A stretch of 64,000 bases of DNA, taken from assembly GCA_963718565.1 (NCBI GenBank), contig OY970364.1:2048001-2112000 (forward strand). Reading direction: 5' to 3'. Of this stretch, positions 2,845 through 4,011 are shown piece by piece. The translations under genes were made by a program, and so were the position numbers. Positions within the stretch are counted from its first letter, which is position 1; every line of letters starts with the position of its first letter. This DNA comes from an uncultured Verrucomicrobiae bacterium (GTDB lineage Bacteria > Chlamydiota > Chlamydiia > Chlamydiales > Rhabdochlamydiaceae). The notes beneath the pieces are model-generated. The model was not told the origin of the DNA, made no database searches, and saw only the letters and a list, made by a program, of their open reading frames with translations.

Positions 2845-4011
2845 ATGTTGCGCAAGTCGGGATTATCGAGGGAATTGCAAAACTCCTCGCCGCATAAAAT
2901 CGCGCTTTTGGCACCTGTCGCCTTGGCGGCGGCTGCCTTCGGCCCCGGTTCGCTCCTTCGCTCACCTGCTTTGCACTGCGAAGGTTCCCCGGACCTTCTC
3001 GTGTCTTCGCAGCCACTTATCCAAGTATGCTTTCGCCGCCGCCAACCGAACCCGCCGCGCGGGTTCTGGCAACAGGTGCCAAAATCATCGATTTTCTGCT
3101 GGCGAGGAGTTTTGCAATTCCCTCTATCATTATGGATTAGTCTGTTCTTTGTCTTTTCTTGTGCTTTTGTACAGGCAAAACATGCGCCCGCCGCTTCAAA
3201 AAAGTACGAATTATCCATCTGTTCCCTTTTTAAGAATGAGGCAAAATTTCTAAAGGAGTGGATTGAATTTCATCGTCTGGTTGGAGTAGATCATTTTTAT
3301 CTATATAACAACGGGAGCGTTGACAACTATTTAGAGATTCTAGAGCCCTATCTCAAAAAAGGAATCGTGACATTGATCCAGTGGCCTGATCGCACCAAAT
3401 CGGTTGCAGAGGACGATGCTTATATGTGGGCGTTAAGTACACAAGTCATCGCCTATGAAAACGCGATCAAATTACAAGCGGTGGATACAAAATGGTTGAT
3501 TTTTGCTGATATCGATGACTTTATTCTACCTGCAAGAGGATCGACTCTGAAGGAAATTTTAAATCGATACGACGATTTTTCTGGAATCCTTTTGTCGAGT
3601 GATTTCTACGATGCTTCGGAAGTCAATGTCCTCCCTAAAAGAAAACTGCTCATTGAAACGGTAGAAATGACAAATGCCCTTCCGCAAAATGTGCAACGAT
3701 GTTTCGAGAAGATGATCGTCAAACCTCAATCGTGCAAAGGCTTTCATTGGCCTCCCTACAAGTGCGTGTTCAACGATAACCTTCAACCTGTGAAGATGGA
3801 CAGACATGAAATTCGCATTAACCATTATATCCATCGGAAAAGAAACCCTTGGCAATTTGCAAAAATCAAAGAGAAAATACAGGTGGATCATCAAATCATC
3901 TCCGATGAAGAGAGATTCCAATTATTAGACGCCGGCTTTGAAATTGAAGACCAGGAGCGTCTTATTTATCGATTTGTTCCAGAACTTTTGAAGAAAATGG
4001 GATTTCGCTAA
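2845..4011 (+). CDS. Secreted glycosyltransferase family 92-like protein with an 87-codon palindromic element in its signal peptide
   Basis: LSICSLFKNEAKFLKEWIEFHRLVGVDHFYLYNNGSVD and ADIDDF (DxD); GGAG 5 nt before ATG 2845 (ORF track starts at 2830). Confidence 0.8.
   Translation: MLRKSGLSRELQNSSPHKIALLAPVALAAAAFGPGSLLRSPALHCEGSPDLLVSSQPLIQVCFRRRQPNPPRGFWQQVPKSSIFCWRGVLQFPLSLWISLFFVFSCAFVQAKHAPAASKKYELSICSLFKNEAKFLKEWIEFHRLVGVDHFYLYNNGSVDNYLEILEPYLKKGIVTLIQWPDRTKSVAEDDAYMWALSTQVIAYENAIKLQAVDTKWLIFADIDDFILPARGSTLKEILNRYDDFSGILLSSDFYDASEVNVLPKRKLLIETVEMTNALPQNVQRCFEKMIVKPQSCKGFHWPPYKCVFNDNLQPVKMDRHEIRINHYIHRKRNPWQFAKIKEKIQVDHQIISDEERFQLLDAGFEIEDQERLIYRFVPELLKKMGFR
2868..3124. mobile_element. 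MITE family A, long form (257 bp), copy 1; in-frame in CDS
   Basis: Perfect 24-bp TIR gagggaattgcaaaactcctcgcc / ggcgaggagttttgcaattccctc; 4-bp flanking duplication tatc. Confidence 0.92.

Follow-up and report, generated by a model that had tools for sequence, protein, structure and literature searches.

In-frame MITE insertions in predicted signal peptides of a Rhabdochlamydiaceae genome

The GT92 locus

The window analysed here is a 64,000-nucleotide stretch (positions 2,048,001 to 2,112,000) of contig OY970364.1, which makes up the Rhabdochlamydiaceae genome GCA_963718565.1 (one contig, 2,284,058 bp, 43.6% G+C). A GT92 glycosyltransferase gene lies on its forward strand at 2845..4011 (388 codons and a stop; Pfam Glyco_transf_92 at 1.6e-31). 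The database gene call of 388 aa has the same start, ATG 2845, and a GGAG at 2836–2839 stands upstream of it with a spacer of 5 nt. Within the gene is a copy of the long, 257-bp form of a MITE that we call family A (2868..3124, +), with termini GAGGGAATTGC...GCAATTCCCTC. It is flanked by a target-site duplication of the sequence TATC, on the left at 2864..2867 and on the right at 3125..3128. The left terminal inverted repeat, GAGGGAATTGCAAAACTCCTCGCC, is 24 nt long (2868..2891, +); the right one (3101..3124, +) contains GAGGAG followed, after 2 nt, by an in-frame TTG that is a possible internal start.

The insertion point follows codon 8 of the GT92 gene, at the boundary between the n-region and the h-region of a predicted signal peptide. 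Together with one TATC, the 257 bp lengthen the gene by 261 nt (87 codons). No stop interrupts the ORF (2830/2845..4011) across the element, which contributes 86–87 codons in what we term the REL frame. The host h- and c-region, LWISLFFVFSCAFVQA, follows at 3130..3177 (+), with predicted cleavage after A (3177/3178). In-silico excision of the element brings together MLRKSGLS, LWISLFFVFSCAFVQA and KH. The excised N-terminus, divided as MLRKSGLS / LWISLFFVFSCAF / VQA and then K, passes our signal-peptide heuristic (defined below) as a Sec-type signal with an SPase I pattern: it has a basic n-region, an uncharged hydrophobic h-region and small residues at −3/−1.

The best 120 GT92 homologues are about 280–360 aa long and are without the insert. 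In 14 of 15 aligned homologues of about 300 aa the N-terminus reads M-x-x-R/K, h-region, A/E (cleavage between the last two), and the 87 residues are a pure insertion in the window's protein. The fifteenth, P0068, is without this N-terminal segment. Because the homologues begin M-x-x-R/K before the h-region, the ancestral start of the GT92 gene is placed upstream of the element. All 47 columns that are invariant in the 15-homologue alignment are kept in the window's protein.

A preliminary description of this DNA, made from the sequence alone, had reported a stop-free insert of 261 nt, and the sequence and its ORF reading bear this out; its claim that excision restores a Sec signal peptide, with the insert between n- and h-regions, agrees with the heuristic and with the 14 homologues. 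It had named gene decay and a start downstream of the element as grounds on which its reading would fail. The gene does not appear to be decaying, given the 47 invariant residues and the dN/dS of 0.08–0.11 in three other host genes, and a downstream start is disfavoured, since the homologues start MLxR before the h-region and all copies in signal peptides are open. The empty site expected in orthologues was recovered for GT92 at the protein level but not at the DNA level, because the closest orthologue of the gene is only 57% identical; no orthologue was found in the congener G004.

A second family A copy, of the short 182-bp form, sits exactly on the GT92 stop codon (4013..4194, +), with the duplication TAAT at 4009–4012 and 4195–4198. 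Contigs from a soil metagenome study (four runs) bridged no junction of the insert and showed no empty site. They did include copies of the MITE in different flanking sequence, along with a few fragments that match the gene body exactly. No Rfam family matched in the window, and a search for RNA data over window positions 2700–3500 found no run covering the locus. Five TLC nucleotide transporters encoded in the genome, and homologues labelled as Chlamydiales or Verrucomicrobia MAGs, are consistent with a chlamydia-like organism.

Family A is a MITE

BLASTN against the whole genome gave 137 family A loci, of which 70 have both ends, so that the proposed mobile element proved to be a true repeat family. 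The ends, GAGGGAATTGCAAAACT, are inverted over 24–30 nt with 93% complementarity. The 4-bp flanks of the 70 copies are identical in 51, differ by one mismatch in 14, by two in 4 and by three in 1, and the duplications are biased to T-W-W-A. Family A is a MITE by its inverted ends, fixed-length duplication, small size, many copies and absence of a transposase.

Copies fall into size classes of 182 bp and 257 bp. With the duplication included, lengths are 186 nt (23 copies), 261 nt (8), 262 nt (7) and 263 nt (4), plus smaller remnants, and 44 of the 70 are divisible by three. The focal copy is 97–98% identical to six other 257-bp copies, and long-form copies in this genome are 95–98% identical among themselves. 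At this likeness many insertions would be young, and possibly only mildly deleterious. Another 257-bp copy in the window (10346..10602, +) is open in frame within a 1219-aa collagen-repeat ORF (10198..13857); it lies upstream of that ORF's signal peptide and may precede the true start.

Of its six frames the element leaves three open, so that the lack of a stop is less striking than it seems: given a length that is a multiple of three, a stop-free reading has about a one-in-two chance. The reverse orientation that offers an equivalent exit sequence (frame −2) carries two stops upstream of it. As RNA, the focal element folds at −147 kcal/mol (z = −14.3), and none of 200 shuffled sequences was as stable. 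This hairpin starts 23 nt after the ATG, where it could hinder translation or invite RNase cleavage.

The element's peptide matched no NCBIfam family at E ≤ 0.01. That release should include domain models for Rickettsia palindromic elements (RPEs). The analogy with RPEs drawn in the preliminary description holds as a way of working and may not extend to family membership.

A 1740-bp unit bounded by family A ends (genome 1624273–1626012, duplication TGAA) was considered as the autonomous parent and rejected: it is a shell of family A type, and its core is a nested ISAs1-family IS of 1.3 kb (NF033564), 12 other near-identical copies of which are without family A ends. Ten IS clusters of 800 bp or longer were examined, and family A ends flank none of them on both sides except in this nested case. 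The mobilising partner may have been lost or may reside in another replicon. Fifteen of 18 other genomes of the genus carry diverged relatives of the element; the 22 genomes searched outside the genus have none.

A second family and other repeats

A copy of a different MITE, family B (169 bp with TA on each side; 22898..23070, −), lies in the signal peptide of an ORF of 327 aa on the same strand (22100..23083, −). It has 25-nt inverted ends and a TA duplication and adds 171 nt, or 57 codons, after codon 4–6. The N-terminus at this site reads MKKF.. up to the insert and continues as ..IICFIILILSLHTSVFA, and the excised N-terminus is MKKFVICFIILILSLHTSVFA. The earlier statement that an unrelated family at 22.9 kb behaves in the same way is therefore correct.

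In a self-comparison of the genome, segments repeated at least 4 times cover 271,504 of 2,284,058 bases, and clustering of these segments yields several MITE-like families. The modal lengths of families C (170 nt) and E (139 nt) cannot keep frame. Family D has a modal length of 171 nt and is frame-compatible, yet none of its copies is open.

Genome-wide survey of insertion sites

Six sets were defined by their ends (A, 70 copies; B, 21; B2, 1; C, 14; D, 15; E, 23), giving 144 paired copies. For each, the copy and one duplication were excised in silico, and an ORF of at least 120 aa spanning the site from an upstream start was sought. Openness was judged on the real sequence through the element. 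ORFs span 59 of the 144 sites, and 24 copies are open through the ORF: 18 of 70 in family A, 6 of 21 in family B and none in B2 (0/1), C (0/14), D (0/15) or E (0/23).

Signal peptides were called with a heuristic of our own, which asks for a basic n-region, a 9-residue window with KD ≥ 2.0, and the −3/−1 rule or a lipobox. The base rate was taken from 1717 ORFs, a crude gene set that accounts for 84% of the genome. With any start within the first 50 codons allowed, 436 genes (25%) are positive. Signal-peptide codons make up 1.6% of all coding codons, a share that becomes 1.8% once each site is weighted by the duplication matrix.

Heuristic signal peptides hold 10 of the 24 open copies against the 1.8% expected (binomial 5.8e-12), and for family A alone 7 of 18 (1.7e-8); the gene set and start choices are our own crude models, and the few and related loci overstate these significances. 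Restricting the comparison to the first 30 codons leaves 8 of 16 in signal peptides against 20% (p = 0.007). The bias of coding insertions towards signal peptides, on which the preliminary description had staked its proposal of a safe haven, is thus present in this genome. Two hosts whose signal peptides look clear by eye (487130 and the MOMP-like 2027781) escape the heuristic, which also accepts two first transmembrane helices, of an MFS transporter and a CAAX protease.

A count by eye, softer than the heuristic 10 of 24, puts the number of export signals with an insert derived from a MITE at about 18, with at least three families involved. Family A accounts for 10 full and 4 partial copies, family B for 1 and a further repeat, cluster 27, for 3. 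These amount to 4–6% of predicted export signals. The hosts of full family A copies match SBP_bac_3, FKBP_C, SGL, Peptidase_S13, Gly_transf_sug, Legionella_OMP and GT92; the rest are a MORN lipoprotein (lipobox LSGC) and two proteins without a Pfam family. Four eroded family A fragments lie in the signal peptides of a GH130-like protein, a second FKBP, NamZ and one unknown host. The three export-signal copies of cluster 27 have hosts that include an Fe/Mn superoxide dismutase with a signal peptide. The hosts include a periplasmic binding protein, two FKBP proteins, PBP4, a MOMP-like porin, NamZ and a lipoprotein.

In-frame copies elsewhere include one in an ABC ATPase (residue 17), one in a pseudouridine synthase (residue 27) and one in a chorismate-binding enzyme (residue 142). 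Further examples are at the N-terminus of a SET-domain protein and, in a MutY-like protein, between its HhH-GPD and NUDIX_4 domains. Stop codons adjoin at least 10 of the 144 copies, in addition to the one at 4013–4194 on the stop of the focal gene. No paired copy breaks a gene body; intragenic family A copies are open, at a stop codon or before the true start. As part of the best explanation, the survey would indicate that selection has left in-frame copies mainly in export signals, at protein termini and linkers, and at stop codons.

Frame maintenance and the REL peptide

All 8 family A copies with a length of 261 nt are intragenic, whereas only 1 of the 11 copies with a length of 262 or 263 nt is (Fisher 1.2e-4). 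In the SGL gene, the element carries a −1 indel and, 79 nt downstream, a +1 indel that restores the frame. All 7 family A copies in heuristic signal peptides are open, for a chance of about 0.31 per copy (p = 3e-4). Where a copy evidently lies ahead of the true start, as in prs, rpsL, a DEAD-box helicase and others, it has stops or frameshifts.

The open frames differ in what they encode. The REL frame gives a hydrophobic run of 20 residues (over 15 aa, KD peaks at 2.2–2.9), then RRR, and ends K..R-G-VLQFPL. The two other open frames are basic and hydrophilic (KD 0.05–0.8) and end GEEFCNSL. Eight of 10 exported hosts use the REL frame, and none of 8 others does (Fisher 0.001, or 0.007 when three doubtful non-exported hosts are set aside), a test that rests on small numbers (10 against 5–8). 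Target-site phases are even (0.32/0.32/0.36), so the expected share of the REL frame is 0.33, and its use in exported hosts exceeds this (binomial 0.003). Long-form fusions owe their scoring as signal peptides to the hydrophobic run of the element itself. If that run of 20 residues were inserted N-in/C-out, the mature domain would end up on the incorrect membrane side.

Relatives and selection on host genes

The congener G004 has 8 matches to the REL peptide, 3 of them in long ORFs, and all three of these fall within signal peptides. The first belongs to the orthologue of the SGL host, in which the element has the same site and orientation and is still open, with its ends and duplication decayed. 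Here dN/dS is 0.08 for the host at a dS of 0.59, and 0.30 for the element part over 61 codons. The second is the orthologue of the MORN lipoprotein, where an open element has a different site and orientation (host dN/dS 0.11, dS about 0.6); this suggests, from the positions in the two sequences, that the gene was hit independently in the two congeners. The third is another lipoprotein.

The MOMP-like host has an exact empty site (TTTT) in G004 and in another congener, G013, and its dN/dS, computed with the empty-site orthologue of a congener, is 0.09. The dN/dS of the three hosts shows purifying selection on them. No orthologue of the periplasmic binding-protein host was found in five congeners at E ≤ 1e-30. 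Four lines of sequence comparison, namely element length, compensating indels, frame sorting and dN/dS, suggest that the inserts are translated and under selection.

Interpretation

The reading that we prefer, with a probability of about 0.75, is that a transposed MITE is read through from the native ATG and is tolerated in an export signal that is dispensable once targeting is complete. Family A, a non-autonomous transposon, would have inserted into TATC after codon 8 of the GT92 gene. The gene would have been kept intact, as the insertion added 261 nt and half of the element's frames are open, and translation would begin at the native ATG and continue across the insert. Because the insertion leaves the h-region, c-region and cleavage site as they were, the mature enzyme should be unchanged after removal of the signal. 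The insert would then persist because it is located in a part of the pre-protein that is dispensable after targeting. From the gene's sequence we infer translation, export competence and removal of the insert by signal peptidase.

The properties of the REL peptide would fit this location. Its exit, K..R-G-VLQFPL, probably rebuilds a basic-then-hydrophobic junction before the host h-region. REL would be favoured in export signals because the other frames put two glutamates before the h-region, and would be absent from cytoplasmic proteins because of its hydrophobic helix. By the positive-inside rule, a basic cluster keeps a loop cytoplasmic. The RRR cluster behind the helix could accordingly hold the loop in the cytoplasm, where it may serve as the n-region for the host h-region.

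A stronger version, which we consider unlikely, is that family A is adapted to export signals, with its loop supplying a fresh n-region and its helix keeping a membrane-targeting segment N-terminal; the lengths added by its two size classes are both divisible by three. Insertion would then be near-neutral, or might even re-route exported proteins, for instance through co-translational targeting or with a hairpin peptide left in the membrane. If this version were true, 4–6% of export signals would be chimeric and signal peptides would be a general, unrecognised niche for MITEs.

Read-through and tolerance would yield a testable rule: within bacterial genes, selfish DNA can persist in the segment of a pre-protein that is shed once targeting is complete. 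The sorting of frames by host destination would be sequence-level evidence for the translation of MITE-encoded peptides, and the roughly 18 inserts would be natural experiments on how much foreign sequence a signal peptide can carry. For annotation, such inserts would explain over-long N-termini of secreted proteins and warn against shifting starts downstream.

Alternative explanations

Translation might instead restart at the in-frame TTG of the exit repeat (GAGGAG-TT-TTG), giving M-QFPL and then the h-region, perhaps after the hairpin is cut by RNase III, and the upstream ATG and the peptide encoded by the element would be irrelevant. RNase III is known to process MITE hairpins, as in the Correia elements of Neisseria. 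The exit repeat does pair a Shine-Dalgarno-like GAGGAG with a TTG in the REL frame, and the element is a very stable hairpin, but only 2 nt lie between GGAG and TTG. With an internal start, neither the difference between lengths of 261 and 262/263 nt nor the compensating indels would matter. The reverse orientation, which has an equal exit and upstream stops, is found in no signal peptide, against 8 open copies, and two copies in signal peptides use other open frames that have no in-frame start in the exit repeat. We regard a restart at the TTG as improbable.

We give even less weight to the view that the copies in signal peptides are recent, mildly harmful insertions or the onset of gene decay, so that there is no refuge at all. 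Recency accords with the 95–98% identity of the long forms, with their mostly perfect duplications and with the repeat-rich genome (271,504 of 2,284,058 bases, as above). No paired copy, however, breaks a gene body. The four eroded family A fragments are still in frame in signal peptides, and in G004 diverged copies with decayed ends are open in three. Nor is gene decay easily squared with host dN/dS of 0.08–0.11 or with the 47 invariant residues of the focal protein.

Least probable among these, by a little, is an effect of target choice, in which the transposase favours AT-rich T-W-W-A sites near 5' ends and signal peptides have no special tolerance. The duplications are indeed biased in this way, and many copies lie on stop codons or precede an ORF start by no more than 10 codons. 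Weighting by the duplication matrix, however, lifts the expected signal-peptide share only from 1.6% to 1.8%, and the target phases are even (0.32/0.32/0.36). Three families with different duplications (4 bp, TA and that of cluster 27) share the same location, and frame sorting by host type could not be produced by target choice. Removal of the insert at the RNA level was also considered; nothing pointed to it. Read-through of a tolerated insert remains our preferred explanation.

Comparison with known systems

In-frame MITEs and RPEs are already known, with one published case in a signal peptide; a bias of such insertions towards signal peptides was not found described. The literature searched, which lies outside subscription journals, contained no description of a signal-peptide bias of in-frame MITEs, no paper on MITEs in chlamydiae and none linking an RPE with a signal peptide. 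The term 'signal peptide' is absent from the reviews PMC10969869 and PMC3184786. The preliminary description was unaware of an account in chlamydiae. That much stands, as no chlamydial MITE paper was found, but a precedent exists in Yersinia pestis, so the literature is not wholly silent on repeats in signal peptides (PMC2759123).

The precedent is YPO1552, in which an RU-2 element (ERIC-like) is fused in frame and forms the first 30 residues of a signal predicted by SignalP (Delihas, 2007, PMC2759123). As with the inserts described here, a small mobile repeat is joined in frame to the N-terminal end of a protein that is putatively exported. As far as the accessible text of that paper goes, RU-2 differs in being treated at a single locus and as a source of new peptides, with no tests of enrichment, frame or orthologues.

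RPEs are palindromic repeats of about 150 bp found in frame in unrelated genes, where they encode a conserved peptide at permissive sites (Ogata et al., 2000, as summarised in the accessible part of PMC10969869). Family A resembles them in being short, palindromic, in frame and non-disruptive in many unrelated genes. It differs in its clear 24-nt inverted ends and 4-bp duplication and in belonging to another bacterial group. Its coding copies, moreover, concentrate in signal peptides, a bias that the RPE accounts in the accessible text of PMC10969869 do not mention.

BOX, ERIC, QMITE1 and the MITEs of Anabaena are ORF-bearing repeats fused in frame at internal or 3' positions, according to the accessible parts of PMC10969869 and PMC3184786. 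Unlike those cases, the 3' class here consists of insertions exactly on stop codons, and the 5' class lies in export signals.

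Insertions at gene boundaries

A second copy of family A, the palindromic MITE found in the signal peptide of the GT92 glycosyltransferase gene, lies precisely at that gene's stop codon (short form, window 4009-4198). The stop codon is kept because the TAAT duplication includes the TAA stop. Among the 144 both-ended copies of six TIR-defined MITE sets, at least 10 further copies adjoin ORF stop codons.

The gene for a TolC-like outer-membrane efflux protein (OEP; G000:C1:611872-613314 on the whole contig of this genome; locus L081) carries an in-frame 173-bp repeat of another family directly after the predicted cleavage site, so this insert would stay on the N-terminus of the mature protein.

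At a lipoprotein gene of the congener G004 (L057 on G004:C65, ORF from locus position 1492), the ATG arises at the junction, where the flank gives AT and the element's first base gives G; the n-region of the signal peptide is therefore wholly element-derived. In the SGL gene, which carries family A in its export signal, one tetranucleotide is occupied in both species (G000:C1:1018889-1019145 versus L067 in G004). The G000 copy is 98-99% like other copies of its genome; the one in G004 has diverged, and its ends are species-specific. Either gene conversion among copies or independent hits must lie behind this.

Related elements and nesting

A further set of elements on G000:C1 has its outer 17 nt in common with the family A ends. 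The set has two distinct subterminal sequences (AACAAAACGGGG..., n=28; AACGCGAAAAGG..., n=14) and varies in length from 88 to 563 bp; examples lie at 2061887-2062306 (window 13887-14306), 329338-329599 and 1244133-1244438. These elements could be the remains of a lost autonomous element. A 2164-bp unit with the same type of ends and an AATA duplication (G000:C1:443881-446044) contains a family B2 copy and a 100-aa ORF that, judged by eye, looks like a putative RelE/ParE-type toxin.

Thirteen near-identical copies of a 1.3 kb ISAs1-family IS (NF033564, 274 bits) are present in G000. One is nested inside a 439-bp shell whose ends are of the family A type and whose duplication is TGAA (G000:C1:1624273-1626012, L052); the 12 others are at other sites.

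Family A copies are themselves found inside other repeats. A cluster-27 repeat, from a further repeat family, encloses one upstream of a 1219-aa ORF (window 10198-13857). This ORF contains collagen triple-helix repeats (9e-120 in Pfam), and its C-terminus gives a weak BclA-like match that falls below threshold (29.9 bits, cut-off 38). The same nesting is seen in the PBP4 gene (G000 1734964-1736772).

Genome-wide features

Segments repeated four or more times make up about 12% of the G000 genome. The genome also encodes four full-length TLC-type nucleotide transporters, with one short partial match above the Pfam cut-off; obligate intracellular bacteria likewise carry transporters of this type.
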